This document shows, piece by piece, positions 9,916-37,212 of a DNA stretch of 64,000 nt. The translations under genes were made by a program, and so were the position numbers. The stretch's first letter is position 1, and every line of letters begins with the position of its first letter. The notes under the pieces were generated by a model, which saw only the letters and a program-made list of their open reading frames with translations, ran no database searches and was not told the origin of the DNA. The stretch comes from a virus, in IMG/VR virus record IMGVR_UViG_3300045988_175328, positions 163,220 to 227,219 of that record; one strand, 5' to 3'.

Positions 9916-10860
9916 ATGTCTCAAGATAAAGTAAATAAAATTGTATTTTGTTCTTTAGATGAGTATAAAACTCTAAGTAAGGAAGAAAATACAGGATATA
10001 TAATCGATGCTAAAGATGTCTCTGAGGCTATTACAAACAGTGATACTATAGAATCTGGTGGACATAGTTCTGAAGGTCATTCTGTCGATCCGAATCAAGA
10101 ACCTGATTTTATCTGGCTGCCACATCTTTATAAAAAGTTTGATTTACAAAATGTAAAAGAGCCAGCATCTTTAGAATATGAAACGAATAATCCAAGTAGA
10201 ATTGGGTATGCGAAACCAGTTATTTTTCAAGGGACATTAAAAAATAAGCAAATACAATTACTCGATAATGTAATTAATTACGATGCTTTAACTGAAGTTA
10301 ATATCGGCAATATTTCAATCGACAAATTTAATAATTTGTCTCTTTTGAGGATTCCACTAAATAAAGAGAAGTTGCCCTTTTTCTTTAAAGGCAATACTCA
10401 AGAGAAAATTTTTCCTGTGTTATCTACACTTTCTGAGTCTACTTCTTCTTCTGAATTTCCAATTCCTTTTGTTTATTATTCTGTAGGAGAATCTAGTTCA
10501 TTTTCCTTTTCTGCTAATGATCGGGACTATTATTTTAGCAATCCTATATATAATTCTACCGATAAAACATCTGAATGGAGTTTTTATCTTGATGAAGAAA
10601 GAAATTATTACATTCAAAGTTCTTTTATCGAAACAAAAGAAATAAAAGAAATGCAAGATGGACCAGAAAAAGAAGCAGCTAAAAAAGAAAGAAAAACAAA
10701 GCTAGTTGAAAAGCTAAAGAATCAGAATAATTTATTTTACTTCTGTGGAGTCGATTATTTCCAATTTAGTAATATTCAAGAGCCTCCTGATGCTGAAAAT
10801 TTTAATTGGTTTAACATTGGAGATTTAAAAGTACGATTCAAAAAACTTCACCGTTCCTAA
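9916..10860 (+). CDS. hypothetical fibre-associated protein, paralogue of previous gene in N-terminal ~55 aa
   Basis: 314-aa ORF; MSQDKVNKIVFCSLDEYKT...ITNSD. Confidence 0.7.
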   Translation: MSQDKVNKIVFCSLDEYKTLSKEENTGYIIDAKDVSEAITNSDTIESGGHSSEGHSVDPNQEPDFIWLPHLYKKFDLQNVKEPASLEYETNNPSRIGYAKPVIFQGTLKNKQIQLLDNVINYDALTEVNIGNISIDKFNNLSLLRIPLNKEKLPFFFKGNTQEKIFPVLSTLSESTSSSEFPIPFVYYSVGESSSFSFSANDRDYYFSNPIYNSTDKTSEWSFYLDEERNYYIQSSFIETKEIKEMQDGPEKEAAKKERKTKLVEKLKNQNNLFYFCGVDYFQFSNIQEPPDAENFNWFNIGDLKVRFKKLHRS

Positions 10861-15148: not shown

Positions 15149-15706
15149 ATGCAATTAACTAAAGATCAATTACTTAATACATGCGAAGAACAAGGCTATA
15201 ATAATACAAAGATTACTCTTCATTGGTCAGCCGGCCATTATGATCAGTTATTCGATGACTATCATCTTTGTATCGATGGTAATGGTAACTTCCATCAGAT
15301 GAAAGATTTTAGTGAAGTCGGCGCCCATTGCTATCGTGAGAATACGAATAACTTCGGCATCTCGGTATGCTCGAACTACAATTCCGGCCTCTACGAAAAC
15401 TCTCCGGGATATTTTACGTACGAACCAGGACCAGAACCTGTTAATTATAATCAACTCGAATCGCTTGCACATGCTGTAGCCGTATGCTGCGTTACTTGGG
15501 GATTACCGTTATCGCAAGTATTTACTCACGGCGAACGTTGTTTAATTCGTCAAGACCTCTACGACTACGAAACAGAACGTTGGGATCTCGATATCCTCGT
15601 TCCAGAATGTCACGTACGCAAGACATCGCCAACGACAACATCTGGTGGCGACTGGATTCGTAACCGAGCACGAGAACTTGCTAAGAGCTGGGGGACGGAG
15701 CTCTAA
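15149..15706 (+). CDS. N-acetylmuramoyl-L-alanine amidase, T7-lysozyme/PGRP (Amidase_2) type
   Basis: 185 aa from ATG 15149 (GAAAGGA RBS); ITLHWSAGHY, VGAHCYRENTNNFGISV and FTHGE align with T7 lysozyme IFVHCSAT, VGSHAKGYNHNSIGV, AHHEV. Confidence 0.75.
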   Translation: MQLTKDQLLNTCEEQGYNNTKITLHWSAGHYDQLFDDYHLCIDGNGNFHQMKDFSEVGAHCYRENTNNFGISVCSNYNSGLYENSPGYFTYEPGPEPVNYNQLESLAHAVAVCCVTWGLPLSQVFTHGERCLIRQDLYDYETERWDLDILVPECHVRKTSPTTTSGGDWIRNRARELAKSWGTEL

Positions 15707-16671
15707 TGGCTCTTAACGATTACGAGTTCTCGGTACGAGAAACCGAGCCAAAACGTGCCGAGATGCTCAATCGTCTTAAAAACGAAATCGGAGAATTAAC
15801 AAAAGATACAATTATTAATACTAATGAAGATACTCCCGATACTCAGTTTAATGACGATAAGGCATTATCGGCGGCGCTGGCCTTCTCGAAATTCCCGACA
15901 AAAGAAAAATTAAACAATGAATACTATAATAAGCCGGCGGTCGATAATTTAATTAATCAGATCCTTGCAAATAAACTCCCAGAATTAAAGGCTCTTTTTA
16001 TGGAGGAGCTAAATAAGCATCGACATGCCGACCCGATCGATCATCCCGATATCCCGGGATCGAAGATCATCGATCATTCGATCACGCGTGATAAGCTTGC
16101 ATTCCAAATCTCGTTCGAGAATTCATGGCCTATCGGATCGATCTATATGACGACGGTCGATACTAACCCAGCAACTCTCTTCGGATTCGGTACGTGGACG
16201 AAAATCCCAGCCGGCAAAGTTCTCCTTTCCGAAGGTAATGATATGGGTACGATTTACACTAACGGTGAAACCGGCGGATCTAAAGAGATCTCGATCGACA
16301 AATCTTTCGTTCCGTATCACACGCACACAATGCAAGATGGAAGTGGAGCTCATACGCACACCGGTAAGGTATCGAATAACGGCGATCATTTCCACGGATT
16401 CCAAGGCGAACATTGGGAATCATATGCGCGTTTTGGAACATATGATAATAGTGAACGTGGCTATGGGTCTGCCGGAGGTATTGATAACGACAATCTTGTC
16501 TACAAAACAACAACAGATGGCGCCCATACTCATACCCTTCAAATCGACCCGTCGACAGGATCTCATATCCACACAATTAATCCGGCCGGAACTCAAACAC
16601 AAGACGTAGTCGAAAAACACTCAATAATACAACCATATATCGTTTGCTATATGTGGAAACGCACTGCATAG
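15706..16671 (+). CDS. tail fibre tip protein with tail-collar-like domain and multiple HxH motifs
   Basis: 321 aa; GGSKEISIDKSFVPYHTHT, AHTHT, DHFHG, AHTHTL, SHIHT, C-terminal IIQPYIVCYMWKR; paralogue of 13923 product C-terminus. Confidence 0.7.
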   Translation: MALNDYEFSVRETEPKRAEMLNRLKNEIGELTKDTIINTNEDTPDTQFNDDKALSAALAFSKFPTKEKLNNEYYNKPAVDNLINQILANKLPELKALFMEELNKHRHADPIDHPDIPGSKIIDHSITRDKLAFQISFENSWPIGSIYMTTVDTNPATLFGFGTWTKIPAGKVLLSEGNDMGTIYTNGETGGSKEISIDKSFVPYHTHTMQDGSGAHTHTGKVSNNGDHFHGFQGEHWESYARFGTYDNSERGYGSAGGIDNDNLVYKTTTDGAHTHTLQIDPSTGSHIHTINPAGTQTQDVVEKHSIIQPYIVCYMWKRTA

Positions 16672-16682
16672 TATATCTTAAT

Positions 16683-16724
16683 CCTCCCTTACTTCTTAAC
16701 TGGAGTAAGGGAGGTATTTTTTTT
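16683..16724 (+). terminator. strong intrinsic terminator ending the virion module
   Basis: 11-bp stem cctcccttact/agtaagggagg then T8. Confidence 0.9.
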
Positions 16725-16983
16725 ATTAGTGTTAGGTGGGGTCTAGTGACGGTTCTTTTAATAAGGAAAGAAAATGAGTATAAATATATATAAGATGGAG
16801 AGTACAGGCTGGCCGACATTTATGTCGATCAGTTAAGTGGAAGTGTAGTTAGAATGGGGGTTGTTGGGTCTTAAAATGGAAATAATAAAATAAAGAGAAA
16901 AATAGCAAAACATATTCTGACTGAAATTTAGGAATAGTAATAAGAGTAATTTGTTTTGGTCGAAGTATTGTTTGCGAGACGGA

Positions 16984-17185
16984 AATAAATAAATGAATTT
17001 TGATGACATAGGTCGAGTTAGCTGTGTAGGTCGATAGACGTGTTTTATACGTAAGCCAGATTTTGTGAAAAATTTAAAAATAAATAAGAAAATAAATAAA
17101 TGCTGATTTGTTGTGGTAGGTCAAGTTAGATGCGTAGGTTGACAGGCGTGTTCTGTAAGTGAACTAGAATTTTGTAGAGAATTTG
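16984..17185 (+). repeat. two ~90-nt direct repeats upstream of the RNAP gene
   Basis: aaataaataaatg..taggtcgagttagctgtgtaggtcgatagacgtgtt (16984-17075) vs aaataaataaatg..taggtcaagttagatgcgtaggttgacaggcgtgtt (17091-17185). Confidence 0.7.
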
Positions 17186-17310
17186 GAGGGGGAAGTGTTT
17201 TATGAAGATATTAGAGTGCTGAGAAATCATGCCCCCGGGTGCTTGATTCTCGGAACTCTCACTACTTTTGCGCCATATAGTAGCCAGGCGCATTTCTAAA
17301 TGTGGTTACG

Positions 17311-17347
17311 ACGAGCCTTTCTGACTGGAGCTCGTTTCAATCCAGTC
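17311..17347 (+). promoter_or_regulatory. possible H-type pseudoknot in RNAP 5' leader
   Basis: stem acgagc(17311-16)/gctcgt(17330-35); loop gactgga(17323-29) complementary to tccagtc(17341-47), about 15 nt before the RBS. Confidence 0.3.
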
Positions 17348-17375
17348 GAATTTGTTCAGAAAAGGAGAAATTATC

Positions 17376-20300
17376 ATGAACAAACAAAACATTCAAAACA
17401 ACAAAAATTTAAAAGCTGTCGTATTGGCAGCAGTAGATGCAGCAGTAGCTGCTGATGTGCGCGTGGTTAATACCACTGCGGCGGTAACAACCGCAGAAGC
17501 AGTAGTTACTGAAACTGCAGAAACACTTGCGCGCGCAGCGGTACAGTTTCAAACATTTATCAACAATTTTGTAGTAGAAGGAGGCGAGTATCGTAGCTTC
17601 ATGGGCATTCTATCTGATGTAGGATTTACACATCCAGATCTTGTTAAATGGGTGCGTAAACAAAAATGGACAGAAGCAATGTCTATTTGGAGAGAGGGTC
17701 AAGGATACACACGTAATTCTTTCCTTTGTGATGAAGACTGGAATACATTCCTCGAATTACGGGAAGCCCTCCTTCAAGCGCGCAATGCGTACAAAAACGC
17801 AAAACGTAAATTAGCTAGAAAAGAAGTCGCATTAAAAGCAGCAAAAAAAGAGGCAGCAAAAGCCTTATTAGCAGAGAAATCTGCAAACAAACAATGGAAA
17901 AAGGCGAGAAAGGATGCGAAAGAAGCAAGAGCTACTGAAGCAGCAGTAGCAGTCGAAGAGGCTCGATTAGAAAAAGCACGAAAACGTGCTGAAAAAGTGG
18001 GTCCGAAGGAACCGCCAAAACAAAGAGTGGCCGTAGCTGTTGCTGGTCTTGAGTCCATGTTAGAATGGATCGAATCTAGAAAGGTAGCTGTTACTAAAAC
18101 AGTTGTATTAGAAAATACAGCTAAATTAGTAACAGAAGCTAACGCAGCTGTTGAGTACGGTTATATGGATGCTAGAACTGGAGAATTTGTTTCTACAGAA
18201 GGAACAAAAGAGTTCTCTGGTGCTAGATTCAAAACTGGTGCTATCAACATTGCCGATAAAAATACTGCTAAAGCAACAGCAAAAGCCAACGCTACTGCTA
18301 ATGGTAAAGATTTAGATGGAGACGTCATAAATCGCTTCGTTAAACCTAGAAATATCCTTGATGGATTCAAACTTAAATTGCAAATGTTTGGATCTAAAGT
18401 ACGTGTGCGTAACGTACTTAAAGGTAATCGTAAAGGTTTTAAAGCTGTAATGGGACCAAAAGCACAAGTTGCTATTAAGTCCATTATCGTTGACGGTAGC
18501 GACGTAATGGCTAATGGTGAAGGTGTAAAAGCTATGGCAGTAGCAACTACATCCTCCATTAGCTATATTGTACGTACAGCAATTCGTCTTGGCGAAGAAA
18601 AAGGATGGGCTGAAGAGCTTGTTCTTAGAAATTCTTCTATTAAGACTGGCTATATGGATGGCAACATCGGTATCAACTCTCATAGAGAGATGACATCGAT
18701 GGAAGCCGATTTAACATATATGACTGCAGAAGTATCTGCTAATTATGTGTTGAATGGCTTAATCTCCATTCATATCGATAAAGAGGATGAGGAAGGCGTA
18801 TCCTTCACAAAGGGCATTCGTCAAGCAGAATTCATTATCGTTGATGGAATTAAATACATTCCGTTAATGGTTGAGTCTGTTGCGAAGACTCGTCTATACG
18901 ATACAGTATGGACAGCTGAGCATCTGGCTAACCAATGGCGCGAAGTGCTTCGTGTAGCGACAGGAGGAATCTCTGACAGTATTACTCTAATGAAAGAGTT
19001 AACTAAAGCTCTTAAATTGAGAAGCCGTTTGGGAATGGGGTTCTCTCCTAGCTATGAGTTCGAAATCGATCTTGCACGTTGGGGCGTTGTGTATCTTGAC
19101 GCTTCTATCGATGCAATCGACGGACAAGCTTACGGAAGCAGAGCTATGATGGAAGAGCTTCTTGAACTAGCTGGCGTGAACTCATGGCAAGTTCGCACGA
19201 ATACAGGTAAAGGACAACTCGTTCCAATGAAAAGAATGAAACGTCTACTTGCTGTATTGTGCGAACAATACGGTCTTGAACTCGTTTACGTTTCTGACGT
19301 TGACGAAGTTCAAGCAGCTATTGATGCAGCAAGAGCTGAAGGTAAAAGAGTAGCCGTTGTTGTTGGTAACGCCGAACATATTGGCATGATCGGCGATATG
19401 AATTTCTTTAAAGGAATTCCGACTATCAATGATGGTGGCATTGTTCGTCTAAGCGTCTTGAGAAATCTTGCACCAACAGGCAACGGCTCTCACTTCGCTT
19501 ACCAGGCAGCAGTGGGTGCTTTATGCTCTTACGAATGGGATAATAAAGACCGTTTCGTAAAAGCATTGGCTATGCAAGCCGTTGAAAAATTCACAGAAGC
19601 TTTCAATGGCTGTGCTGTTAATAAATCTGTAACTGATTTGTTTGCAGCATTAGTTGGAGTAAAAGGATTGGCTGGCGAAGCTGATATCATCAGCGAATTA
19701 GCCAACGGTGCATTTACTCCAGCTATGTATGGCATTAAAGAGCTTTCCTATGCGTTAAGAAACGAGCAACAAGTTGTTCGTGGTAGTGCATGGAAAGTTT
19801 CTTGCCCAGGCATGAAGGACGAGCTATTTAACGAAGCTATTCTTGAAGGAGCTGGCCTACTTGTTGTAGAAGGAATTGTTTCTAATAACAATCCTTTACT
19901 AAAACAAGGCGATTGGGTGATGGCATTGAGATACCCACATTCCAATGGGTTCTCTTTCGTTAAAATCAGACTTGTAACAGTATCTGAAGCTATCGAAAGA
20001 GTGAACAACTCTTCCGCGTTTGCGGCTCAAAAAGCTGTCATGATCGATGAGCTATTATCCCTTGGTGATAATAACATCATGGTAGACAGCAGCCGTGAGG
20101 TATTGGAAGCATTAGCTGGTATGGATTTTGATGGAGACGTGATCTCTGTCTTAAATCCAGAAGAAGCAGAGTTGCTTTTGCCAATGGATGAGCTACGTAC
20201 AGTCATTGCTCCGATCGTAACGAAAGCTCAAGAAAAAGAGCTTGTTGTTACAGGAAACTTTGAAGATACAATGCAACATCTTCAAAGCGAGATGGCAGCT

Positions 20301-22178
20301 AATGAAACTAAGTACGTTGGCGAAATCTCCAATGGAGTAATGAAAGCAACTGAGTTCTTGGGTCTTCCTAAAGATGAACAAAGAAAAATTGTGGCAGAAA
20401 TTGTCCGCAATGGAAATCTAAGCCACAATGGCTTATTGCCTACGTTCAACTGGGAGGAACAAGTAACTTGGGTTGAAGGAAAAGAAGGATTCGTACTTAG
20501 CGATGAGTCTACAACTCCTCAAGCTTTAGTTGCTATGAAAAATGCGTTCTTCGATAAAGTTGATGAACGAAACTACTCTGTAGAAAGTTTCATCAACTTC
20601 GCAGAATACGTTGTCATCATGTCTGGTCCAACGCAAGGATTCGTAATTGATGCGGCGAAAAAATTCTGTCCAATCGTAGACTTAGCAGAAGATATCTTCT
20701 CCAACTTAAGTCTTGGATGGAAAAGATTCGCTCCAACAATGGTGCTTACATGCAATGAGTATGGAGAGTTCTCCAAAGGTATGTCTTATAACTTTGGCGA
20801 AGAGAACTCTAGCATTACTCTTACAGTAGGCGCATGTATTCAGGTAGAAGCTTTCAAAGCGTTTGCGGTGGAAGCTTCTAAAGCTATCTTAAATGCATTT
20901 GCTGGAGAGGATGCATCTAAAGCTAACTGGAAAGCATTTGAAGACGCATTGAAAAAAGAGTCTTTAATGTCTTTGGTTGGTGGTAAGATGAACTCTGCTA
21001 GAAAGAACTGCAGAAACATTGCTGCTGGAGCTGCAGCTGCGATTAAAGTTATCGACAACCAAATCGCAGAAGCTTGCGGCGAAGAAAACATTCCTAGTAA
21101 AACAATGAAGGAATGGAGCGACGCTATCGGCTGCATGTTTGCTGCATCTGGTACAATCAATCCTCTTGGATTACGTGCTTATGCATCCAGCAAAACATTA
21201 CGTCCAGCAATCTTGAAAGCAATGCTTGACGCTGCTGAAGTAAAATCCATTCCTGTAGAAATTGGATTTACTTCTATGGCAAGAGTTGCTTTTGCGAAAG
21301 CGAATGTTGGAGAAAAAGTATTCTTCGAAAACTCTAAAGCTGCTGATGCTAACGGAGTAATTCTTCTACACTCTGGTTTAACAGGTTACTACAAAGTATC
21401 TGTTAAAACAGAAGAAGTAGAAGAAAACGGAGAAACAATCTCTGTAGAGACATACTTCGTAGAAGTGCCTGTGTCCGAAGTATTAGGCATCGAACCGATG
21501 AAAACAAATCGTTTCGTTGCTCACTTAGGATACGAAGGTGCCGATGCTGAAGTCGCTAGAAAGTTTAATGCTGAATTAACTAAGTTCGACTTCTGCGCGG
21601 AAGGTACGTTCGCTTTCTATGGCACGATGAAAGAACTAAACAATCTTATGATTGAAAAGTTTGGCGAAGGTGTCTTAAGAGACGTATTGGTATCAACAAT
21701 AACTGGGCTAAAAAACGGTGAAGACGTTTATAGCCAACAGTTTGTTGATTTCATCGCTCTTGCTAATGGTCACGCTACTGATCCGAAGTATGCAGCTGAT
21801 GACAAACATGACCGCGTATTCTTTGTTCGCAAAGATGAGAATGGTCGGGTTGTGGTTATGAGATCATTGCCTAACCAAGCAATGGCTTATGGCCATGAAG
21901 CGTTTAAGCTAAGAGGCATGTTCGCTGGAGAACTAAGATTAGTTAGTTACATCTTAGAAGGAAAAGCTAAGTCTGACAAAAAGGGCTATGTTAATAGCTA
22001 CTTATTGTTAGAGCACAAAACTTTAGCTCCTAAGCAAGAAATCAGTGCGTATATCAATGGTTTAATTACTAAATATGCGGCTGATTTCAAAGCAGCTGTC
22101 TTAAATAAAAAGTTCGAATTAGGTTGCCTTGGTAGCCTAGTTCAAACTGTATTATCTGATGAAGAAATCATTGGATAA
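17376..22178 (+). CDS. putative single-chain two-barrel (DPBB) RNA polymerase, YonO / crAss-gp66-like
   Basis: 1600 aa from ATG 17376 (AAAGGAG RBS; track ORF starts at TTG 17352); RTNTGKG (19194-19214), RYPH (19929-19940), DFDGD (20124-20138) in beta-then-beta-prime order. Confidence 0.6.
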   Translation: MNKQNIQNNKNLKAVVLAAVDAAVAADVRVVNTTAAVTTAEAVVTETAETLARAAVQFQTFINNFVVEGGEYRSFMGILSDVGFTHPDLVKWVRKQKWTEAMSIWREGQGYTRNSFLCDEDWNTFLELREALLQARNAYKNAKRKLARKEVALKAAKKEAAKALLAEKSANKQWKKARKDAKEARATEAAVAVEEARLEKARKRAEKVGPKEPPKQRVAVAVAGLESMLEWIESRKVAVTKTVVLENTAKLVTEANAAVEYGYMDARTGEFVSTEGTKEFSGARFKTGAINIADKNTAKATAKANATANGKDLDGDVINRFVKPRNILDGFKLKLQMFGSKVRVRNVLKGNRKGFKAVMGPKAQVAIKSIIVDGSDVMANGEGVKAMAVATTSSISYIVRTAIRLGEEKGWAEELVLRNSSIKTGYMDGNIGINSHREMTSMEADLTYMTAEVSANYVLNGLISIHIDKEDEEGVSFTKGIRQAEFIIVDGIKYIPLMVESVAKTRLYDTVWTAEHLANQWREVLRVATGGISDSITLMKELTKALKLRSRLGMGFSPSYEFEIDLARWGVVYLDASIDAIDGQAYGSRAMMEELLELAGVNSWQVRTNTGKGQLVPMKRMKRLLAVLCEQYGLELVYVSDVDEVQAAIDAARAEGKRVAVVVGNAEHIGMIGDMNFFKGIPTINDGGIVRLSVLRNLAPTGNGSHFAYQAAVGALCSYEWDNKDRFVKALAMQAVEKFTEAFNGCAVNKSVTDLFAALVGVKGLAGEADIISELANGAFTPAMYGIKELSYALRNEQQVVRGSAWKVSCPGMKDELFNEAILEGAGLLVVEGIVSNNNPLLKQGDWVMALRYPHSNGFSFVKIRLVTVSEAIERVNNSSAFAAQKAVMIDELLSLGDNNIMVDSSREVLEALAGMDFDGDVISVLNPEEAELLLPMDELRTVIAPIVTKAQEKELVVTGNFEDTMQHLQSEMAANETKYVGEISNGVMKATEFLGLPKDEQRKIVAEIVRNGNLSHNGLLPTFNWEEQVTWVEGKEGFVLSDESTTPQALVAMKNAFFDKVDERNYSVESFINFAEYVVIMSGPTQGFVIDAAKKFCPIVDLAEDIFSNLSLGWKRFAPTMVLTCNEYGEFSKGMSYNFGEENSSITLTVGACIQVEAFKAFAVEASKAILNAFAGEDASKANWKAFEDALKKESLMSLVGGKMNSARKNCRNIAAGAAAAIKVIDNQIAEACGEENIPSKTMKEWSDAIGCMFAASGTINPLGLRAYASSKTLRPAILKAMLDAAEVKSIPVEIGFTSMARVAFAKANVGEKVFFENSKAADANGVILLHSGLTGYYKVSVKTEEVEENGETISVETYFVEVPVSEVLGIEPMKTNRFVAHLGYEGADAEVARKFNAELTKFDFCAEGTFAFYGTMKELNNLMIEKFGEGVLRDVLVSTITGLKNGEDVYSQQFVDFIALANGHATDPKYAADDKHDRVFFVRKDENGRVVVMRSLPNQAMAYGHEAFKLRGMFAGELRLVSYILEGKAKSDKKGYVNSYLLLEHKTLAPKQEISAYINGLITKYAADFKAAVLNKKFELGCLGSLVQTVLSDEEIIG

Positions 22179-22192
22179 CAAATAATAATAAA

Positions 22193-22227
22193 GAGAGACC
22201 TCTATATGGGGTCTCCTCTTTTTTTTT
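22193..22227 (+). terminator. intrinsic terminator after RNAP gene
   Basis: stem gagacc/ggtctc then T9. Confidence 0.8.
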
Positions 22228-22422
22228 ATTTTCTGGGATCCCCTCCGGGATCAGGATTCCTCCGCTACGGCTCAGCCTGCGCTCCGGAATAGGCCAGCCT
22301 ATGGCTGTCCGTTAGGAGCGTTATCATTAGGTAGAGGTATAACGATAGAGGAAATAAAAATCCTCATTTATGAGGGTTTATCCTTAGTAAGGAGGAAGAT
22401 AGAAAGTAAAAATGTTTTTCTT

Positions 22423-22450
22423 CTTAAGGGGCAAGCCCCTTAACAACCCC
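22423..22450 (+). repeat. H5 28-nt element cttaaggggcaagccccttaacaacccc, copy 1
   Basis: identical 28-mer also at 30995, 31998, 34950; variant at 38690. Confidence 0.9.
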
Positions 22451-22543
22451 GCCACCCCTGCGGGATGGACCGAACTGGCGGTGGATGAGGTCGTCCGAAA
22501 CGACGTCAAACTAAAGGAAAAATCCTCACTTGTGAGGAAACTT

Positions 22544-22567
22544 GCTCCTGAGTACGAGCTAAAACTG
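22544..22567 (+). promoter_or_regulatory. H1 element (covarying hairpin + TAAACTG), representative copy
   Basis: gctc-ctgagtac-gagc then taaaactg; one of 13 copies between 22490 and 26150. Confidence 0.6.
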
Positions 22568-22723
22568 CTTGCGAGGAAAAATCCTCGTTGTTGAGAGCAC
22601 TTGCTCTTCGAAGGCCCTGGCGGTGTCGGAGAGAGGAGTAGGTGCTGTGGTCCTGAATAAGACATTAAACTGTTTCAGAGGAGAAAATCCTCTGTTGTGA
22701 GAGAGCTCATTTAACTCTCTGTT

Positions 22724-22745
22724 TTAATTAAGCCAGTGTAGAAAT
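22724..22745 (+). promoter_or_regulatory. H3 hairpin with conserved GTAGAAATATTT loop in 5' UTR
   Basis: ccagt/gctgg stem; same loop at 25012, 32852, 35320 with different stems. Confidence 0.6.
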
Positions 22746-22785
22746 ATTTGCTGGTGTTTTCGGGCGCATGCCCAAGGAGGTTATC

Positions 22786-23250
22786 ATGTTAACTTTAGAA
22801 TTAAATCGAAAAATGGCCTATGGTTTTTTCCCAGAATTAATTCGCGATGAAGAGAAAATTGCGAATTTGAATGACTTATTTCAAGAAGTTATTATGAAAA
22901 ATAATCCTAACGGAGTTAAGCTCCAATTGGATTTTAAGCACAATGTAATTGTGCATAAAACCAATGTAGGCGAAGTAACTCTAGTAGAAGAGTACTTCCC
23001 TAATGGTACTGAAAAACTTTGGGTAAATCGTTTCCGTAACAGGAAACAACTATTACCTAAAGTTCCTGCAGAATTAATTCCTGTCGCAAAAGAATGCGAC
23101 GAAAGAAATTTATACAAATTTAATTATTTAAGAGAAGGAAACATTACGTTTTATCTCGCAAATAATAGAAAGGTTCTCGTAAGAGAAACTAAAATGGAGG
23201 ATGGAAGTCTTTCAATCGATTTATTCTACCTAGCTGATTTGTTGGCCTAA
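22786..23250 (+). CDS. hypothetical early-region protein
   Basis: 154 aa from ATG 22786, AAGGAGG RBS (track ORF starts at 22768). Confidence 0.7.
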   Translation: MLTLELNRKMAYGFFPELIRDEEKIANLNDLFQEVIMKNNPNGVKLQLDFKHNVIVHKTNVGEVTLVEEYFPNGTEKLWVNRFRNRKQLLPKVPAELIPVAKECDERNLYKFNYLREGNITFYLANNRKVLVRETKMEDGSLSIDLFYLADLLA

Positions 23251-23296
23251 GTAGAATAATCTCCTAAGCATGAGAATAAACTGCTTATTTGTAACG

Positions 23297-23321
23297 GCTC
23301 CTGAATATGAGCATTAAACTG
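23297..23321 (+). promoter_or_regulatory. H1 element, representative copy
   Basis: gctc-ctgaatat-gagc then attaaactg. Confidence 0.6.
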
Positions 23322-23421
23322 TTCTAGAAGAAAATCCTCTATTATGAGTTTTGTCCGTAATGACGATAAACTAATTATTATAATTTAATTTGGCGGCAAA
23401 TCGCCAGAAAGGAGGCATATT

Positions 23422-23577
23422 ATGTCTCAATTAGAATTAACAAACCACTTAGCGTGGGTAGAAGAAATGGTTGCATTCGCGGAGACTGAAGAGTCCAACT
23501 ACCGTGACTTCGAAGGATATCTTGCGGAGTCATTTATCGGAGGCCTGGACCTCTGGCTAGGAGACGATGAATTTTAG
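23422..23577 (+). CDS. small acidic hypothetical protein (51 aa, below ORF-track cutoff)
   Basis: AAAGGAGG RBS 7 nt before ATG; MSQLELTNHLAWVEEMVAFAETEE...; same hairpin-RBS leader as neighbouring genes. Confidence 0.6.
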   Translation: MSQLELTNHLAWVEEMVAFAETEESNYRDFEGYLAESFIGGLDLWLGDDEF

Positions 23578-23715
23578 ACTCTAGTTTCCTGACCAAGACC
23601 TAGGTATGTCTTTAAACTGCCTAAATCCTCCCCATTGCGGGGACTGAATTGTCTGAGATGACGTTAAACTATTTAATTTAATTCATGGCGGCAAATCGCC
23701 AGAAAGGAGATAAGT

Positions 23716-24006
23716 ATGCATACTTATACTCTTGAAAACACTGAGGCACTAGTTGCCTTAGTGCGTGACCTTTGTTTTAGCAATGGTCATTGTCCCAAAG
23801 AAATCTTCTCTTGGGATGAAAAACATTACATTGTAGCCGGCAACCTAGCTAGTTACGATGGACCATGGGACGGTCCTGAAGATGTCGCTCATATCTACGT
23901 TGATGGTGTAGGCGTGGGAGAAATAGATATCTTCGGCGCCGACCAAATTGCATTCGCCGTTGCTAACTGGAACGGCGAAGAATTGAACAGAAAGGTGGTG
24001 GCTTAA
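23716..24006 (+). CDS. hypothetical early-region protein
   Basis: 96-aa ORF; AAAGGAG RBS preceded by ggcggcaaatcgcc hairpin. Confidence 0.7.
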   Translation: MHTYTLENTEALVALVRDLCFSNGHCPKEIFSWDEKHYIVAGNLASYDGPWDGPEDVAHIYVDGVGVGEIDIFGADQIAFAVANWNGEELNRKVVA

Positions 24007-24036
24007 CTGCTTTTCTGTAATCTCGTCGACCACTCG

Positions 24037-24420
24037 GTGGATGTTTACGATTTAGTAGGAAATCTAATCGTGAGCATCCCTAAGAGTGGTCGTGTAGCTC
24101 GTGTTCGGACAAGTAGCGAAAGAGTGGGCGCTATTTGTTCTAAGGATTTTAGCTATCGAAAATACAATGAAGACGGTAGCTATGAAGATACACCACTTAA
24201 AGGGAACCCACAATCTGGGCACCTGAATATATTCAAATCTGAGTATTCAGATGTCGAAGGGTTCCCTGAAACTATAGAACAGGGTGTGTATTATATTGTC
24301 AGTTCTATGGTGGCGTCTCGTATACAGAGTCATCAGGTTATTGCGCCTGGTCAGATTATGCGGGACGCCTCCGGCAAAGCCGTAGGATGCTGCGGTCTTA
24401 GTTATACTGCCGGAAGATAA
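24037..24420 (+). CDS. hypothetical protein
   Basis: 127-aa ORF with GTG start and no clear RBS. Confidence 0.5.
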   Translation: MDVYDLVGNLIVSIPKSGRVARVRTSSERVGAICSKDFSYRKYNEDGSYEDTPLKGNPQSGHLNIFKSEYSDVEGFPETIEQGVYYIVSSMVASRIQSHQVIAPGQIMRDASGKAVGCCGLSYTAGR

Positions 24421-24460
24421 ATTAATTAATTTAAATAGGGCCCGGATGCTCGAGGAGGTA

Positions 24461-24637
24461 ATGATGAAGAATATAATTATCGTATGCATGCTATCACTAA
24501 TCTGCACTATAGCAATAGTGGAATTTTCAGTAGGCTTGTTCCCAGCATTAGCTGGGTATCCAGAAGCATTGGCTACAGCAGGAGCTATTTCTGTTGCAAC
24601 TATTTCCTTCATGTTGTTTGACATGATAGGAGACTGA
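24461..24637 (+). CDS. small hydrophobic membrane peptide
   Basis: 58 aa from ATG 24461 after GAGGAGG; two predicted TM segments. Confidence 0.6.
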   Translation: MMKNIIIVCMLSLICTIAIVEFSVGLFPALAGYPEALATAGAISVATISFMLFDMIGD

Positions 24638-24656
24638 AAAATCCTCGTTTATGAGG
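24637..24656 (+). promoter_or_regulatory. H2 element AAAAATCCTC-N-TGAGG, representative copy
   Basis: aaaaatcctcgtttatgagg; one of at least 19 copies in the window. Confidence 0.6.
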
Positions 24657-24732
24657 AGAAGTCCGTAATGACTGTAAACTATTCTAATATATTTAATTAA
24701 TTAAAGGGCGCAAATGCCCGGAGGAGGTTTCT

Positions 24733-24903
24733 ATGAGAGACGAAATCATTTTATTAATTTCCAGCATTGCAGTAGGAGTGGGAATTTCTACTCTTATTAA
24801 TGAGGTTTTCCCTATATTAGTGGATTATCCATTAGTAATGTCTATCTTCGGAGGAATCATCTCAGGAGCGATATATTATTTTATTCACTTGTTATCATAC
24901 TAG
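24733..24903 (+). CDS. small hydrophobic membrane peptide (56 aa, below ORF-track cutoff)
   Basis: GGAGGAGG RBS; MRDEIILLISSIAVGVGISTLINEVFPILVDYPLVMSIFGGIISGAIYYFIHLLSY; resembles 24461 product. Confidence 0.6.
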   Translation: MRDEIILLISSIAVGVGISTLINEVFPILVDYPLVMSIFGGIISGAIYYFIHLLSY

Positions 24904-25076
24904 TAGAATAAAATCCTCAGACCTCAGCAAGTCTTTAAACTACTCTTTCCTGACAGTTCCTAAGTATGAACATAAAACTGCTTATCTTTTAAAAATCCTC
25001 GCTTGTGAGGTGCTTGCGTAGAAATAGCAAGCTATATTATTTTAATTAGGCCTTAGGCCAGAAATGGAGTTTTATC

Positions 25077-25547
25077 ATGAAAACACAAAAATCTACAGAA
25101 CGCAAATTAGTTAATTTTTCTAGCTACTTTAAACAAAAAGACGACAAAGTCTTTGGTGCTGCTGTATTGCACTGCGGCAAGGAAGTGCAAGTTGCTGCTT
25201 ACAATGGCGGCAAAGCCCTTCATTCTATTGAAGGAGCTGTGTGTGCAGCAGCATGCGCAGCTACAGTAAATATGAAGAAGGGAGACCTCTTCACCATGAT
25301 TGTTGACTTGAAGACATTACGCCAATTATGGTCTGCTATTAAAACTGGCAATGTAACTGATGACTTCGCAGGCAATGAGGCGGAACGCAATGCCGTTATC
25401 AAAATGGCCGAACGCGTTCCAGCCCTTCGGGCTCGCGGCATTATTGTGAACATTCGTGCTCATAAAGATGTCTATGCAAGTGGAGGATACTTAGCAGGGC
25501 AACTCCCAATTTGGAGCCGTATGGCTACCAAAGCTATGAACATCTAA
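25077..25547 (+). CDS. hypothetical protein
   Basis: 156-aa ORF; leader carries H2, H3 and a ggcc-tta-ggcc hairpin. Confidence 0.7.
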   Translation: MKTQKSTERKLVNFSSYFKQKDDKVFGAAVLHCGKEVQVAAYNGGKALHSIEGAVCAAACAATVNMKKGDLFTMIVDLKTLRQLWSAIKTGNVTDDFAGNEAERNAVIKMAERVPALRARGIIVNIRAHKDVYASGGYLAGQLPIWSRMATKAMNI

Positions 25548-25604
25548 ATCCTCTGACCTGAGCATGTCGGTAAACTGCTCAATTATTTAATTTAATTTAA
25601 TTAA

Positions 25605-25620
25605 GGGCGGCAAATCGCCC
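25605..25620 (+). promoter_or_regulatory. H4 GC hairpin abutting the RBS, representative copy
   Basis: gggcggcaaatcgccc followed directly by gaggagg; similar at 22753, 23391, 23686, 24706, 25049, 48760. Confidence 0.6.
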
Positions 25621-25632
25621 GAGGAGGTTTAT

Positions 25633-26118
25633 ATGCAAACTTTGAAAATTAACAATCCTACAAGAAACTTAATTGAGATGACTTTAGAGGTCACAAAATT
25701 AAACGGCACTATTGAACAAGACGGCAATGCTGTTATCATTAATTTGCCAGAAGAACAGGTGTCTGCCTTTGTAGAATGGTACGGTGGTACTGGACTTAAG
25801 GAGACTGCCCTTGCCATCGCAAAGAAAGCAGGAGCATTAACTGCCAAAGCAGGAGACCTTACGAAAGTAGGGACTGTTGCTTTAGGAAAATTATCTTTCA
25901 AGACAGCCTTCGGTATGACTCGCAGAGCCATTGAGGCGACCGCGGGGATCACAGCTGCGGCCGTTAATGGCGCCAAAGAAGCTTATAGCGAAATGGTAAG
26001 TTCTGACGAGTTCAGAGCTGTTAAAGAATCTTTTAGTTCTGGACGCGGCAACGGCATTGAATTTGTCGAAATGACACCGGTTGTTCAAGCTGAAGTAGCA
26101 GAAGTTGTAGAAGGATAG
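25633..26118 (+). CDS. hypothetical protein, family E (paralogue of 47362..47877)
   Basis: 161 aa; ...LSFKTAFGMTRRAIEATAG...SDEFRAVKESF aligns with ...LAFKTTFGVGRRCVETVAG...SEEFNDLRNQF. Confidence 0.75.
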   Translation: MQTLKINNPTRNLIEMTLEVTKLNGTIEQDGNAVIINLPEEQVSAFVEWYGGTGLKETALAIAKKAGALTAKAGDLTKVGTVALGKLSFKTAFGMTRRAIEATAGITAAAVNGAKEAYSEMVSSDEFRAVKESFSSGRGNGIEFVEMTPVVQAEVAEVVEG

Positions 26119-26127
26119 AAATCCTCA

Positions 26128-26150
26128 GACCTGAGCAAGTCGTTAAACTG
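26128..26150 (+). promoter_or_regulatory. H1 element fused to an H2 AAATCCTC box
   Basis: aaatcctca-gac-ctgagcaa-gtc-gttaaactg. Confidence 0.6.
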
Positions 26151-28682: not shown

Positions 28683-28916
28683 ATGGAAAACTTGTGCGAA
28701 TTATTAATGGAAGAAAAAGAAATAGGATTAGTTCAGTCTGTCGAGATTGAAGACGACTTATATCTATATGAATATCCAAGCGGCCGAGCACTCGTTAAAG
28801 AAATAGACGGGTACGCTACTTGTGACGTAGAGGTGGACGGAAGAAGATTCTTTTCAGATATCCATCTGCCATATAAAGATGTGGTGCGAGAATTAAACAG
28901 AGTCGTAGAATTATAA
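28683..28916 (+). CDS. family D-like small protein
   Basis: 77-aa ORF, AAGGAG RBS. Confidence 0.7.
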   Translation: MENLCELLMEEKEIGLVQSVEIEDDLYLYEYPSGRALVKEIDGYATCDVEVDGRRFFSDIHLPYKDVVRELNRVVEL

Positions 28917-28920
28917 TAAT

Positions 28921-28968
28921 AAGGGGTGCCCGAGCGAAGCGAGGGGTTAACGCCCCTTTTATTTTTTT
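28921..28968 (+). terminator. intrinsic terminator whose loop holds the first GA/GAA hairpin unit
   Basis: aaggggtg...cgcccctt stem then tttatttttttc. Confidence 0.7.
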
Positions 28969-29475
28969 CTAATAACCGTCTCCAACGGATCTAGCGAGCG
29001 AAGCGAGCGATTAACGAACCTACTATGTTTAAAGGGCGAGCGAATGCGAGCCCTTGTTAATGGACTTGTTTATATGAGGCGAGCGAAGCGAGCCGTTAAT
29101 GTACCTATCTTAAGTTTAGTAAGGGCGAGCGAAGCGAGCCCATTAAAGAACTAACTTAAAGATAGTAGCGATGCGAACGAAGTGAGCCGAGCTGTTGGTC
29201 CTTACTATAGTATAGTCGGCGAGTGAAACGAGCCGTTATAGTATAGTACTTATATATAGTATTAATAGAAAGAACCCGAAGGGTTATTATGTATAATAGT
29301 ATATATAAGCGAAAAAGGGAGCGTGAGCGACAGAAGGAGAGGCGGCGAACGAAGTGAGCCGTTGTTTGTTTCTTTGTTCCTGTATATATAAGAAAAGACA
29401 AGACAATTTGTTTTCGTCTTTTTGTTATATATAGTATAAAGAAAAAGAATAAATGGGCGCGAGCGGCAGCGAGCG
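28929..29475 (+). repeat. array of about 10 GGC-GA-GC-GAA-GC-GA-GCC hairpin units, each followed by GTTAA-like sequence
   Basis: units at 28929, 28993, 29034, 29078, 29123, 29173, 29217, 29318, 29341, 29455; outer stems covary (ccc/ggg vs ggc/gcc), inner gc/gc vs gt/ac. Confidence 0.8.
28974..28989 (+). repeat. 16-nt direct repeat aaccgtctccaacgga, left copy
   Basis: exact second copy at 43141-43156; both follow a terminator plus T-rich run. Confidence 0.85.
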
Positions 29476-29608
29476 ATTGTTTGTTCTTGTATACTATATA
29501 ATAGTATAAGAAAGACAAGAATTTTTTTGTTTGTCTTATAGTACTATATAGTATTAATAGTAAAAGAAATAAAAAAAAGAATGCCGGAAGTGGTCTTGAA
29601 GAGATTTA

Positions 29609-29636
29609 TGGTAATATAAGTCATGGTACATGACTT
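29609..29636 (+). promoter_or_regulatory. extended -10 (TGgTAATAT) followed by GTA-triloop hairpin, unit 1
   Basis: tggtaatat then aagtcatg-gta-catgactt then aac. Confidence 0.5.
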
Positions 29637-29786
29637 AACCCGTGGGAATTGTGGACGACCCTTCCTTCCGGTGCATGTACCTTTTTTATTTTTTGTCGCT
29701 GGCTCTTATTTAATTTTTGTTCTTGTTATATACTATATATATAATAATAAAAGAAATTAAAATAAGAATCGGCGCCGAGAAAATTT

Positions 29787-29813
29787 TGAGTAATATAAGT
29801 CTCGAAGAGACTT
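29787..29813 (+). promoter_or_regulatory. TGagTAATAT followed by GAA-triloop hairpin, unit 2
   Basis: aagtctc-gaa-gagactt then aac. Confidence 0.5.
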
Positions 29814-30036
29814 AACCGTGAGGTAGAATGGCCGGATGAATTGCTATTGTCTTATACTATATATATAGTAAGACACATAACATATCGCCGCCCGAACCCT
29901 TTAAAAAATTTTATTATTAAATTAATTTATATTTTTTAATTTTTTCGCCCCTGGTATTTTATTATAGTACTATATAGTAATAATATATAAACATAACAAC
30001 ATAATAATAATCGCCCGGGCTTCCTGAAAAAATTTT

Positions 30037-30062
30037 TGGTAATATAAGTCTCGAAGAGACTT
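30037..30062 (+). promoter_or_regulatory. extended -10 (TGgTAATAT) followed by GAA-triloop hairpin, unit 3
   Basis: identical hairpin aagtctc-gaa-gagactt. Confidence 0.5.
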
Positions 30063-30238
30063 AACTCCTTACCCCCGGTATCTTGATCCCGTAGGGGTCT
30101 TATTGTACTGTATCTACACTATAGTACTTACCGAACAAAATGTTTCTTATCTTACTTTTTATTCGGTTGTACATAGGGTTAGACACTTCGGTACATTAAA
30201 AAATTTTTTTTCTAAAAAAATGACTAACGTAACTTTTA

Positions 30239-30262
30239 TGAGTAATATAACTAACGTTAGTT
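30239..30262 (+). promoter_or_regulatory. TGagTAATAT followed by palindrome aactaacgttagtt, unit 4
   Basis: same TAATAT box, different but still palindromic downstream sequence. Confidence 0.45.
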
Positions 30263-30329
30263 TTCTTCGAAGAGAAGTAAGCTGAAACTGCAAGGCTGCC
30301 TGCTCTACGACTGCCCGTACGGTTTTTTA

Positions 30330-30930
30330 TAGAAGAATGGTAGTGTATTAATACTGTACTGTTAGTACTACTAGTACTGTACTACTCGACCCACACCTTT
30401 TGTGGCTGTGCCCTAAAAGGACGGGCCACTCTAATAGTTTTTTTACAGAAATTGTAGTTAATTTGTACTATTTCTAATGCAATATTAATAGTAAAACTGC
30501 ATTGGTTTTTCTGTACTTATAGATATACTAATTGCATTAGTTTTACAGATACAATTGTATTGGTTTTACAGTACCAACAGTTAACTAACACTACAGTACT
30601 TACAGTACTAATAAGACCGTACCAATGGTTTTAATGGTACTATAGTAAGATTGTACCATTGCCAATACAGCACTGCAAATAAAACCGTACTGTTTTGCAG
30701 TACTAAATGGTAATTAAATTGGTATGTTAATACAGTACTAACAAAACTGAACCAATGCTATTAATAGTACTACAGTTAAACTGTATCAACAAGACAGTAC
30801 CTATAGTACTATCAGAACTATAGTTAGATTGTATCAATAAGACAGAACCAATAGAACTATTGAAGCTATAGAAAGACTGTACTAATTAAACTGTACTAAT
30901 AGTATTAACAGTACATATAGTAAAGTAGTA
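30330..30930. repeat. GTAC-rich iteron field (possible origin or protein-binding array)
   Basis: I count 21 GTAC tetramers, mostly as CAGTAC(T/C) or CTGTACT, interleaved with about 10 copies of ACTGTAYCAATGGTTTTA-like repeats. Confidence 0.7.
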
Positions 30931-30994
30931 TTATATTAATAATTGTAATAGTAGTATTAATAATAAGAAGAATAAAGAAAAGAAAAATTTTTTT

Positions 30995-31022
30995 CTTAAG
31001 GGGCAAGCCCCTTAACAACCCC
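30995..31022 (+). repeat. H5 28-nt element, copy 2
   Basis: cttaaggggcaagccccttaacaacccc preceded by A5T7. Confidence 0.9.
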
Positions 31023-31025
31023 AAG

Positions 31026-31053
31026 TTGGTGAAGTTTAAAACAGCAGTAATAT
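31026..31053 (+). promoter_or_regulatory. candidate sigma-A-type promoter
   Basis: TTGGTG, 16-nt spacer, TAATAT. Confidence 0.4.
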
Positions 31054-31059
31054 AAAGAC

Positions 31060-31268
31060 TGTGTTTTTTGTATCACCTCCAATACCGAAACACACATCAT
31101 AATGTTTCCTCCTTTCTAAAATGATGAGAACTGAGAGCTCGGTTGAAACTTAGACCGAGCCTTGGTCTTATCGCGTTTACGCGTAATATACGAGTCCTGT
31201 AAGGACTCGATAACTGGAAACGATGTTAATTTATAGGAATATAGCCGCCCGTTTGGGCGGCTTTTTTT
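31060..31268 (+). ncRNA. candidate small RNA or structured leader (three hairpins + terminator)
   Basis: gctcggt/accgagc, cgcgt/acgcg, cgagtcc/ggactcg stems, then agccgccc-gttt-gggcggct T7 (31243-31268); no ORF. Confidence 0.4.
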
Positions 31269-35360: not shown

Positions 35361-35933
35361 GTGATTAGTAGTATAACCGCCACTAGACTCGTTAGTATGA
35401 TGAGTCGTGGTGACGTTTTTTATTTTGTCAGATACATGAATGGCGAATATGAGATTATAGCTCAAATTGTTAAAGGTGTCGCTAACTCTTTATATACACG
35501 CACTGAACATTTTTATTTTAAAGGCGCCAAAATATATTATTGGGAGTTTATGTCTTGGACAAAAGAAAATAAAAGAAGAGTCGGCAATTTGTATGAGATA
35601 AACATAGATGATGATATTATTACAGATATATTTTATCAAATGCACGATGAATTAAAGGACAAAGTTGGCGCCAAATATTCTAATGCATTTATGACAAGAG
35701 CTGATACTTTACTTGGTAAATTTATTAATCAGGATGATGATTATGATTACTCTTATAATAAAAAAGATTTTTATGGTTTAGAATATATTGATGAAGTAAA
35801 ATCAGATACTATACCTAATAGTATTAAAAGAACTAAAATTAAAACTATTAGTAGTATGTTCTTAGATGTTTTATGCGGCGAATGGTACTATAATATAGAT
35901 CCTAAATTAATAGATATTAAGAAAGTAAAGTAA
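35361..35933 (+). CDS. family A paralogue (KYMNG.YEI...HFYFK...IYYWE...KRTKIKTI)
   Basis: 190-aa ORF, GTG start after GAGGTGAAGG. Confidence 0.7.
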   Translation: MISSITATRLVSMMSRGDVFYFVRYMNGEYEIIAQIVKGVANSLYTRTEHFYFKGAKIYYWEFMSWTKENKRRVGNLYEINIDDDIITDIFYQMHDELKDKVGAKYSNAFMTRADTLLGKFINQDDDYDYSYNKKDFYGLEYIDEVKSDTIPNSIKRTKIKTISSMFLDVLCGEWYYNIDPKLIDIKKVK

Positions 35934-35947
35934 GAAAGGAGTAATCG

Positions 35948-36547: not shown

Positions 36548-36586
36548 AAATCCTCATTTGTGAGGCGTATTTAAAGAGCATATATT
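36546..36586 (+). promoter_or_regulatory. H2 element that coincides with a plausible sigma-A promoter
   Basis: AAAAAT A-tract, TTGTGA (36558-63), 17-nt spacer, TATATT (36581-86), 27 nt before ATG 36614. Confidence 0.5.
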
Positions 36587-36613
36587 TGTATTAATTCATA
36601 AGGAGAAATAATT

Positions 36614-37198: not shown

Positions 37199-37212
37199 AA
37201 AGAAGGTTTTAT

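Follow-up and report, generated by a model that had tools for sequence, protein, structure and literature searches.

Does the large gene that follows the fiber module of an uncultivated phage encode an RNA polymerase (RNAP), and what would such an enzyme do for the phage? The question is raised by a stretch of 64,000 nucleotides (nt) from the IMG/VR viral record IMGVR_UViG_3300045988_175328 (positions 163,220 to 227,219), which is called here the window. At 17376-22178 on the + strand it carries an unbroken open reading frame (ORF), which the original prediction, made from the letters alone, had taken for a single-chain RNAP with two double-psi beta-barrels (DPBB). Translation bears out the uninterrupted product of 1600 amino acids (aa) followed by a stop codon. 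The longest version of the ORF opens at TTG 17352, upstream of ATG 17376; the ATG is the likely start, because a GGAG Shine-Dalgarno sequence lies 9 nt upstream and the same ATGAA start is kept in four related loci. The identical protein is carried by 14 public contigs, the longest of 227,241 bp, and the replicon is therefore a jumbo-sized uncultivated phage.

The protein is very probably a single-chain two-barrel RNAP, a remote relative of a few phage enzymes and of the polymerases that serve RNA silencing in fungi and plants. With considerable confidence, we propose that it is catalytically competent, that it belongs to a clade like that of QDE-1 and the cellular RNA-dependent RNA polymerases (RdRPs), and that this tailed phage of ~227 kb most likely uses it as a DNA-dependent transcriptase of its own genes. 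Enzymes of this kind are well known; the deeply divergent lineage was previously unrecognized.

Predicted barrels and active site

The gene and the regions of its product are listed below, with window coordinates where these were assigned.

17376-22178, + strand: polymerase gene, 1600 aa and stop codon, from translation and family alignment.
17376-18395, + strand: N-terminal accessory module, aa 1-340, Ala/Val/Thr-rich, then Lys/Ala-rich, then a variable linker.
aa ~341-555: beta-rich region between the accessory module and the beta-like barrel.
19038-19445, + strand: predicted beta-like barrel (DPBB-B or DPBB1), aa ~555-690, from AlphaFold2, Foldseek and invariant residues.
19461-19766, + strand: helical connector, aa ~696-797, a low-confidence helical segment (model residues 242-343).
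19773-20153, + strand: predicted beta-prime-like barrel (DPBB-A or DPBB2), aa ~800-926, with LRYPHSNG and the catalytic loop (nt 20118-20138).
aa ~962-995: long helix after the beta-prime-like barrel.
20580-20663, + strand: candidate bridge helix, aa 1069-1096, ESFINFAEYVVIMSGPTQGFVIDAAKKF, two predicted helices (model residues 615-642).
20763-22175, + strand: C-terminal ~470 aa (aa ~1130-1600), least conserved and poorly modeled.

Homologues are few. A word-indexed search of 5.8 billion proteins gave eight, all metagenomic. With aa 501-1300 as the query, phmmer run exhaustively over 1.84 billion cluster representatives gave six proteins, three of the same family and three distant ones (P0010, P0011 and P0012; E 2e-5 to 6e-4), whose matches fall on the RYP...DFDGD and QVR..K regions. 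About ten relatives were found among billions of proteins.

The three motifs that had led to the polymerase assignment are in place, and all of them are kept in the homologues found: RTNTGKG (R607-G613, nt 19194-19214), RYPH (R852-H855, nt 19929-19940) and DFDGD (D917-D921, nt 20124-20138). In the nine-sequence family alignment the residues Q605, V606, R607, T608, K612 and G613, R852, Y853, P854 and H855, and D917, F918, D919 and D921 are invariant; G920 is the sole variable position of DFDGD, and the homologue P0008 reads DFDID. The alignment of 17 sequences takes in distant families, down to 17% identity (the families are 17-20% identical), and its invariant residues are D582, G583, Q605, R607, G664, D674, N676, K679, P854, G915, D917, D919 and D921. 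The beta-like barrel contains D582-G583 (nt 19119-19124), Q605-x-R607-x4-K612-G613 (nt 19188-19214) and G673-D-M-N-F-F-K679 (nt 19392-19412), and an alpha/beta piece of ~50 aa is inserted at aa ~620-668. The N-terminal module has another DxDGD pentapeptide, DLDGD (aa 312-316, window 18309-18323); it is shared with the closest relative, P0001, only and missing from P0005-P0008, and has arisen by chance.

Members of the two-barrel superfamily carry a DxDxD metal loop in one barrel, here G915-M-D917-F-D919-G-D921, and two basic residues from the second barrel (PMC7824862; PMC9508822), here R607 and K679, both invariant in the 17 sequences. In QDE-1 the metal ligands are D1007, D1009 and D1011, and the DPBB1 residues in contact with product and nucleoside triphosphate (NTP) are D709, Q736, R738, K743 and K767 (PMC9508822). 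Mutagenesis shows the importance of the Q-x-R-x4-K residues of QDE-1; Q736 and R738 are specific to RdRPs of the RNA interference (RNAi) type, and RNA polymerase II (Pol II) has K979 and Ala in their places, with the spacing K979...K987-G in Rpb2 (PMC9508822). The string Q605-V-R607-T-N-T-G-K612-G613 has the spacing of Q736/R738/K743, with Gln seven and Arg five residues before Lys-Gly, and is found in P0001-P0010; the Gln and Arg that define the RdRP clade in DPBB1 (PMC9508822) are thus present. From this spacing and the overall fold match, Q605, R607 and K612 are best equated with Q736, R738 and K743. The original prediction had likened R-x3-GKG to the beta-subunit signature GRHGNKGV. The comparison holds for GKG, which corresponds to NKG of beta, but R607 is the Arg of the RdRP clade (QDE-1 R738) and not that of GRHGNKG.

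The role of each conserved basic residue is assigned by analogy with QDE-1 and Pol II, and the same enzymes suggest how the active site may work. D917, D919 and D921 of the beta-prime-like barrel would hold the catalytic Mg2+ ions, while Q605, R607, K612 and K679 of the beta-like barrel would hold on to the 3' end of the RNA and to the phosphates of the NTP; D582 would take the place of D709 in QDE-1. An active two-metal RNA polymerase is what the fold, the complete Asp triad and the preserved basic residues point to.

Profile comparison linked the protein to known RdRPs through a sister family. The distant homologue P0012 has four relatives, which form with it the phage family P0012-P0016, and two members of this family pass the gathering cut-off (23.8 bits) of the Pfam RdRP family PF05183 (P0015 with 32.9 and P0016 with 24.6 bits). 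In hhalign the window family matches P0012-P0016 with 98% probability and E 2.6e-13 over 445 columns. The match pairs window aa 460-936 with P0012 aa 125-600, LRYPHSNG with MRNPRSHS and GMDFDGD with GGSDFDYD.

The first AlphaFold2 model (aa 341-1540, nine sequences) was poor, with a predicted local distance difference test score (pLDDT) of 45.7; its sole significant match in the PDB was QDE-1, and it served as a hint only. The second model (aa 455-1130, 17 sequences) reached a predicted template modeling score of 0.69, with pLDDT 67-94 in the beta-like and 65-93 in the beta-prime-like barrel. It has two confident beta-rich domains, at aa ~555-690 and ~800-926, in agreement with a pair of DPBBs in one active-site cleft. 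In the PDB, Foldseek matched it to seven QDE-1 chains (best E 2.5e-9, probability 1.00, ~750 columns), two chains of Arabidopsis RDR2 (best E 8.6e-6) and the virion RNAP (vRNAP) gp96 of phage P23-45 (8h2n_A, E 1.3e-3). These were the only significant PDB matches, with probability 0.92-1.00 over ~700-760 columns, and weaker ones to the DPBB domains of p97/VCP came after gp96. No beta or beta-prime catalytic subunit was among the significant PDB matches, and the top nine were all QDE-1 or RDR2. Among the predicted viral structures of BFVD, the best matches were phage entries named 'RNA dependent RNA polymerase' (E 1.1e-10 and 8.3e-9), and a protein of the crAss-like cr106_1 matched weakly (E 8.5e-3, probability 0.69). 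The hhalign match, the model with its Foldseek matches, and the motif invariance together support a beta-like followed by a beta-prime-like barrel in one chain.

Between the barrels, the connector keeps an invariant NxAPTGNG (NLAPTGNG within the family) and is probably the counterpart of the clamp connector, by analogy with the enzymes described in PMC10770324. Downstream of them, the helices at aa 1069-1096 are a candidate bridge helix and in the model would act as one. M1082, S1083, G1084, P1085, Q1087, G1088, D1092, K1095 and K1096 of this segment are invariant in the family, I1091, D1092 and K1095 are nearly invariant across the 17 sequences, and the helical pair ends in VIDAAKK. The C-terminal ~470 aa, at 24-32% identity to P0005-P0008 and without a family match in Pfam or PHROGs, would be lineage-specific.

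Relation to known polymerases

QDE-1 and RDR2 (PF05183) are the best structural matches of the window protein. As in QDE-1, a beta-like barrel, a connector, a beta-prime-like barrel with DxDGD and a segment resembling a bridge helix follow in the same order; this is also the layout of the phage enzymes gp66, gp96 and gp64 (PMC10770324). An invariant Asp-Gly (D582) stands upstream where QDE-1 has D709, and RxPxxH precedes the Asp loop. On the other hand, the window protein is encoded by a phage, has no direct match, by sequence or by profile, to PF05183 or among PDB sequences, carries the ~50-aa alpha/beta insertion between K612 and K679, and has unrelated N- and C-terminal regions.

The original prediction had named YonO of SPbeta, crAss-like gp66 and QDE-1 as the type of this enzyme. 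Of this, the QDE-1-like fold stands, and membership in the YonO or gp66 family by sequence does not. The gp66 protein of crAss-like phage phi14:2 is likewise a large single-chain two-barrel enzyme of a tailed phage, has QDE-1 as its structurally closest relative, is encoded with virion genes and carries a DFDxD motif, which reads DFDID in gp66 and in two members of the window family. However, tblastn against 50,697 phage records found no sequence similarity between the two, and the gp66 structure 6VR4 was not among the top 50 Foldseek matches. The window protein has 1600 aa against 2180 aa in gp66. The early transcripts of gp66 have no common upstream motif, whereas the window lineage has conspicuous conserved elements.

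YonO, too, is a phage RNAP with both barrels in one chain, and its DxDGD loop reads DNDGD (aa 535). With 839 aa it is half the size of the window protein, which had correctly been described as about twice as large, and it lacks the Q-x-R-x4-K string. The window protein gave no match to phrog_8308, against which YonO itself scores 1220 bits, and hhalign of YonO as a single sequence against the window family gave no signal (probability 0.15%). YonO is reportedly a non-virion, late-gene enzyme of a temperate phage.

The P23-45 enzymes, gp96 (a vRNAP fused to the tape-measure protein) and gp64 (a non-virion RNAP), are two-barrel phage RNAPs with dedicated promoter motifs, one AT-rich and one GC-rich, in whose description hairpins are not mentioned (PMC10770324). 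Among the significant PDB matches, gp96 alone comes from a phage, but the match is weak (template modeling score 0.24), and the window protein is not fused to a tape-measure protein.

Phage single-chain two-barrel RNAPs (YonO, crAss gp66 and P23-45 gp96 and gp64) are few, and they are central to ideas on the origin of the eukaryotic RNA-silencing polymerases. The lineage described here is invisible to curated profiles, yet it keeps the Gln/Arg signature held to be specific to RNAi-type RdRPs (PMC9508822), which would make it a deep phage branch with a 'eukaryotic' signature.

Surroundings of the gene, hairpin elements and possible packaging

The polymerase gene is a monocistronic unit with a terminator on either side. 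The genes upstream encode a fiber (YadA_stalk+Gp10_C), an Amidase_2 protein and a second fiber (Gp10_C); downstream follows a long run of small same-strand ORFs without family matches, and every sizeable ORF of the window lies on the + strand. The flanks are thus those originally described, a terminator after the fiber/lysin module and a small-gene field behind the polymerase. Three further loci with this polymerase, L001, L009 and L010, were compared with the window. The order fiber-amidase-fiber-polymerase-small-gene field is shared by the window, L001 and L010; in L001, three unrelated ORFan genes (433, 146 and 199 aa) stand between the fibers and the polymerase, upstream of the leader. The features around the gene are the following.

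16683-16714, + strand: intrinsic terminator with a 13-bp stem and T8, closing the fiber/amidase/fiber module.
17009-17031 and 17117-17139, + strand: two copies of the 23-nt motif TAGGTCRAGTTAGMTGYGTAGGT (2 against 0.00 expected), found nowhere else in the window.
17265-17375, + strand: leader of ~110 nt before the start codon, near-invariant in the window, L001, L009 and L010.
22195-22215, + strand: intrinsic terminator, 17 nt past the polymerase stop codon.
22356-26145, + strand: array of strand-specific intergenic elements, starting 178 nt after the polymerase gene.

The leader contains the hairpins GCGCC...GGCGC and GACTGG...CCAGTC and the GGAG Shine-Dalgarno sequence. Its conservation exceeds that of the adjacent coding sequence and continues for another ~100 nt on the upstream side. 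Rfam gave no match for it, and its RNAfold z-score of -1.05 is not significant. The TAGGTCRAGTTAGMTGYGTAGGT pair in the 660-nt untranslated upstream gap is possibly the promoter or operator region of the gene itself.

The N-terminal region has the predicted composition, Ala/Val-rich and then Lys/Ala-rich, as can be read directly from the translation, and it is dispensable. P0002-P0004, whose cores are 95-75% identical, lack aa 4-340, and in L001 the same leader and ATGAACAAA are joined straight to the core (junction 9990-10030). These 340 aa are an in-frame insertion/deletion module, which in the enzyme would form a detachable accessory part. No family match was found for it in Pfam, PHROGs or NCBIfam. 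The 433-aa upstream gene of L001 was considered as a detached form of the module and rejected, as BLASTP gave no similarity and tblastn found no module within +/-10 kb.

The module is 59-64% identical to its counterparts in P0006 and P0008, against 34% for the polymerase body. At first sight it looks unusually conserved, but the flanks show the whole backbone to be conserved, with the polymerase body as the outlier. Between the window and L009 and L010, the amidase, the 321-aa fiber, orf156 and orf161a are mostly 90-98% identical in protein (orf156 is 66% identical to that of L010), and the flanking DNA is 80-90% identical. The polymerase body (18250-22178) is 34% identical in protein, and its nucleotide similarity amounts to one 84-nt match to L010. 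The divergence breaks near aa 292 and 8 nt past the stop codon. By this pattern, the polymerase body appears as a swapped or hyper-divergent cassette within a conserved backbone, which makes it a natural experiment on the parts that co-evolve with the signals. Much of the interest of the lineage lies in this cassette-like divergence and in the hairpin signals that accompany the enzyme.

Two classes of hairpin elements follow the gene. Class 1 is a hairpin of AAAATCCTC, a loop of 4-6 nt and GAGG, with an A-run before it and no T-run after it; its copies in the window are at 22356, 22518, 22577, 22684, 23331, 24637, 24991, 28075, 32062, 32818, 36546, 46904 and 61824. Four of them stand in the ORF-free stretch 22356-22704, and the further ones reach up to 61.8 kb. 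Of the class-1 9-mer, the + strand has 16 copies and the - strand a single one, where 1.3 would be expected. All class-1 copies are intergenic, and several open at the stop codon of the preceding ORF. They lie downstream of the polymerase gene, with none in the structural module, and the same is true in L001, L009 and L010.

Class 2 consists of a covarying 4-bp stem with the loop CTGAGYAW, then 1-2 nt and TAAACTGCT, i.e. (T/A)AAACTG(C/T)T. The window has eight copies (22544, 22649, 23260, 23297, 24919, 24956, 25554 and 26127), and the window, L001, L009 and L010 together have 35, every one of them on the + strand and beyond the polymerase gene. The search pattern imposed no pairing; nevertheless, 92.4% of the stem cells are paired, against 55.7% in shuffles and 30-46% in slid controls. 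The covariation score is 0.80 against 0.18 in shuffles, a value reached by 0/500 of them.

Both classes are confined to the four loci with this polymerase and absent from loci with other polymerases. Sigma-70-like sites are not enriched in the small-gene field (117 against 100 +/- 10). From their sequence and distribution, the two hairpin classes are candidate phage-specific transcription or RNA signals. The stems include G-T pairs, which implies folding of the sense strand or of the RNA. At the head of the small-gene field, 570 nt without an ORF hold a stack of four class-1 and two class-2 copies, an arrangement that favors initiation signals; the copies abutting stop codons favor termination or processing signals. 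If the elements do serve transcription, the enzyme would read the adjacent field of small ORFan genes from strand-specific hairpins that start right after its own terminator. As the candidate signals are conserved, strand-specific, covarying and restricted to this enzyme, the recognition of promoters, terminators or RNA elements by a minimal two-barrel enzyme becomes testable in vitro.

Some further observations concern the same region. In L010, the locus of the phage with P0008, a 658-aa protein with AAA_33, PolyA_pol, PolyA_pol_RNAbd and HD domains, similar to CCA-adding enzymes and poly(A) polymerases, is encoded directly after the polymerase (15409-17385), and the hairpins begin only past it. 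The element TTTTTCTTAAGGGGCAAGCCCCTTAACAACCCC has five copies (window 22426, 30998, 32001, 34953 and 38692), each a GC hairpin with a T-run before instead of after it. The hairpin GGCGGCAAATCGCC (window 23392, 23687 and 25606), preceded by TTTAATTTAATT, is found in front of three small ORFs, immediately ahead of their Shine-Dalgarno sequence and start codon, and is possibly an element of translation or of the 5' untranslated region.

When the enzyme is made is a nearly balanced question. We lean slightly towards an enzyme that is made late, packaged and injected in the manner of crAss gp66 or N4 vRNAP, rather than one made after infection. In favor of packaging are the conserved position at the end of the fiber/lysin module in the window, L001 and L010, the large size with extra domains, and the location of the enzyme-associated elements in the ORFan field and not among the structural genes. 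It is also quite possible that the same enzyme stays out of the virion, is made after infection like YonO of SPbeta or gp64 of P23-45, and takes charge of middle or late transcription or of a gene set of its own, its adjacency to the fibers being incidental. Such non-virion enzymes exist among the known relatives (PMC10770324). The terminators insulate the gene, whose upstream region is long and conserved: behind the strong terminator of the fiber genes, a gap of 660 nt holds a repeated motif and the ultra-conserved leader, so that the gene is not simply part of a late structural operon. The three unrelated genes in L001 and the dispensability of the N-terminal module, in which a packaging or ejection domain would most obviously be sought, speak against packaging as well. 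However, a late-gene polymerase would be expected to have its co-occurring elements in the structural module, the opposite of what is seen, and the size, extra domains and position of the window enzyme resemble those of crAss gp66; neither point is decisive.

The comparison of a packaged enzyme with N4 is one of function only. The N4 vRNAP is a T7-like right-hand polymerase of unrelated fold, and the N4 hairpins form on the template strand. If the hairpins of the window are promoters, both phages would inject a polymerase that reads hairpin promoters heading an early region, but the G-T pairs of the window lineage favor the sense strand. A bolder and rather improbable extension would have the injected polymerase initiate at both hairpin classes, with structure-dependent recognition of hairpin or single-stranded promoters as in N4 achieved by a two-barrel QDE-1-like enzyme. 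The swaps of the polymerase body (34% identity within genomes of 90-98%) would then be the mark of an arms race against host factors directed at the injected enzyme.

Alternative readings and other features of the window

Several points weigh against the proposed reading of a phage transcriptase. The tie to known polymerases is transitive, through the sister family, and structural, through a medium-confidence model built from 17 sequences with an unmodeled connector. With the full protein as the query, Pfam, PHROGs and NCBIfam yielded nothing but noise below threshold (PFIN, Cas3_HD and MutS2); phmmer and three profile searches found nothing relevant among PDB sequences; and tblastn left the polymerase unmatched in the 50,697 GenBank phage records. 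The three intervening genes of L001 weaken the argument from a place next to the virion module. The abutment of elements on stop codons and the sense-strand-only G-T pairs fit an RNA-level element or a terminator as well as a promoter. Finally, the window shows 64 kb of ~227 kb, and another RNAP may be encoded elsewhere in the genome.

The isolation of the protein extends to other collections. PF05183 gave no match to it even at E <= 10 and so remained short of its gathering cut-off. Neither tblastn nor megablast against the GenBank phages found a match for a structural protein, P0015 or 10 kb of DNA. In IMG/VR, scans with single sequences found no relatives and a scan with the family alignment found three distant ones only; a scan of GTDB genomes found none and thus gave no clue to host or prophage. 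Matches of a trimmed-alignment profile to TAL effectors in the PDB, down to E 5e-9, were discarded as an artefact of summed repeats, since the best single domain had an independent E of ~40.

DNA-dependent transcription of phage genes is the most likely job of the enzyme because the characterized phage members of the superfamily (YonO, gp66, gp96 and gp64) are all DNA-dependent and the replicon is a tailed phage with double-stranded DNA. The alternative is a true RdRP on RNA templates, or an enzyme that makes primers for replication or for countering host defense. This would agree with the use of RNA templates by the closest structural relatives, QDE-1 and RDR2 (PMC9508822), with the presence of the Q-x-R signature specific to the RdRP clade, and with stems that fold on the sense, RNA-like strand. 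It is nonetheless very unlikely, given the kinship and the replicon just named; no sign of an RNA replicon was seen, and QDE-1 itself prefers single-stranded DNA in vitro. The chance that the motifs are mere look-alikes, or that the protein is a decayed and catalytically dead structural protein, is close to nil: no curated profile recognizes it and the non-conserved DLDGD at aa 312 shows that such pentapeptides arise by chance, but all predicted active-site residues are invariant over 17 sequences from families only 17-20% identical, the hhalign match has E 2.6e-13 and the significant Foldseek matches are all two-barrel RNAPs.

Beyond the polymerase, scans of the whole window for tRNAs and Rfam families found none. 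The region ~28700-31200 contains no ORF of at least 90 aa; it has AT-rich repeats of TATAGTACTATATAGTA with a period of ~48 nt at 30731-30884 and GGCGAGCGAAGCGAGCC repeats at 28986-29261, and by these features could be an origin or a regulatory region. In the small-gene field, four paralogous ORFs of ~190-200 aa lie at 35385-40400 (repeat families D1, D2 and D5, with 61-74% nucleotide identity). A TnpB-like gene at 44900-46159 carries OrfB_IS605 and a Cas12f1-like TNB domain and matches the transposase family phrog_506. The G+C content of the window ranges from 25% to 41.5%, with its peak at 14-26 kb over the fibers, the polymerase and the first small genes, and the GC skew is positive throughout from 16 kb onwards.

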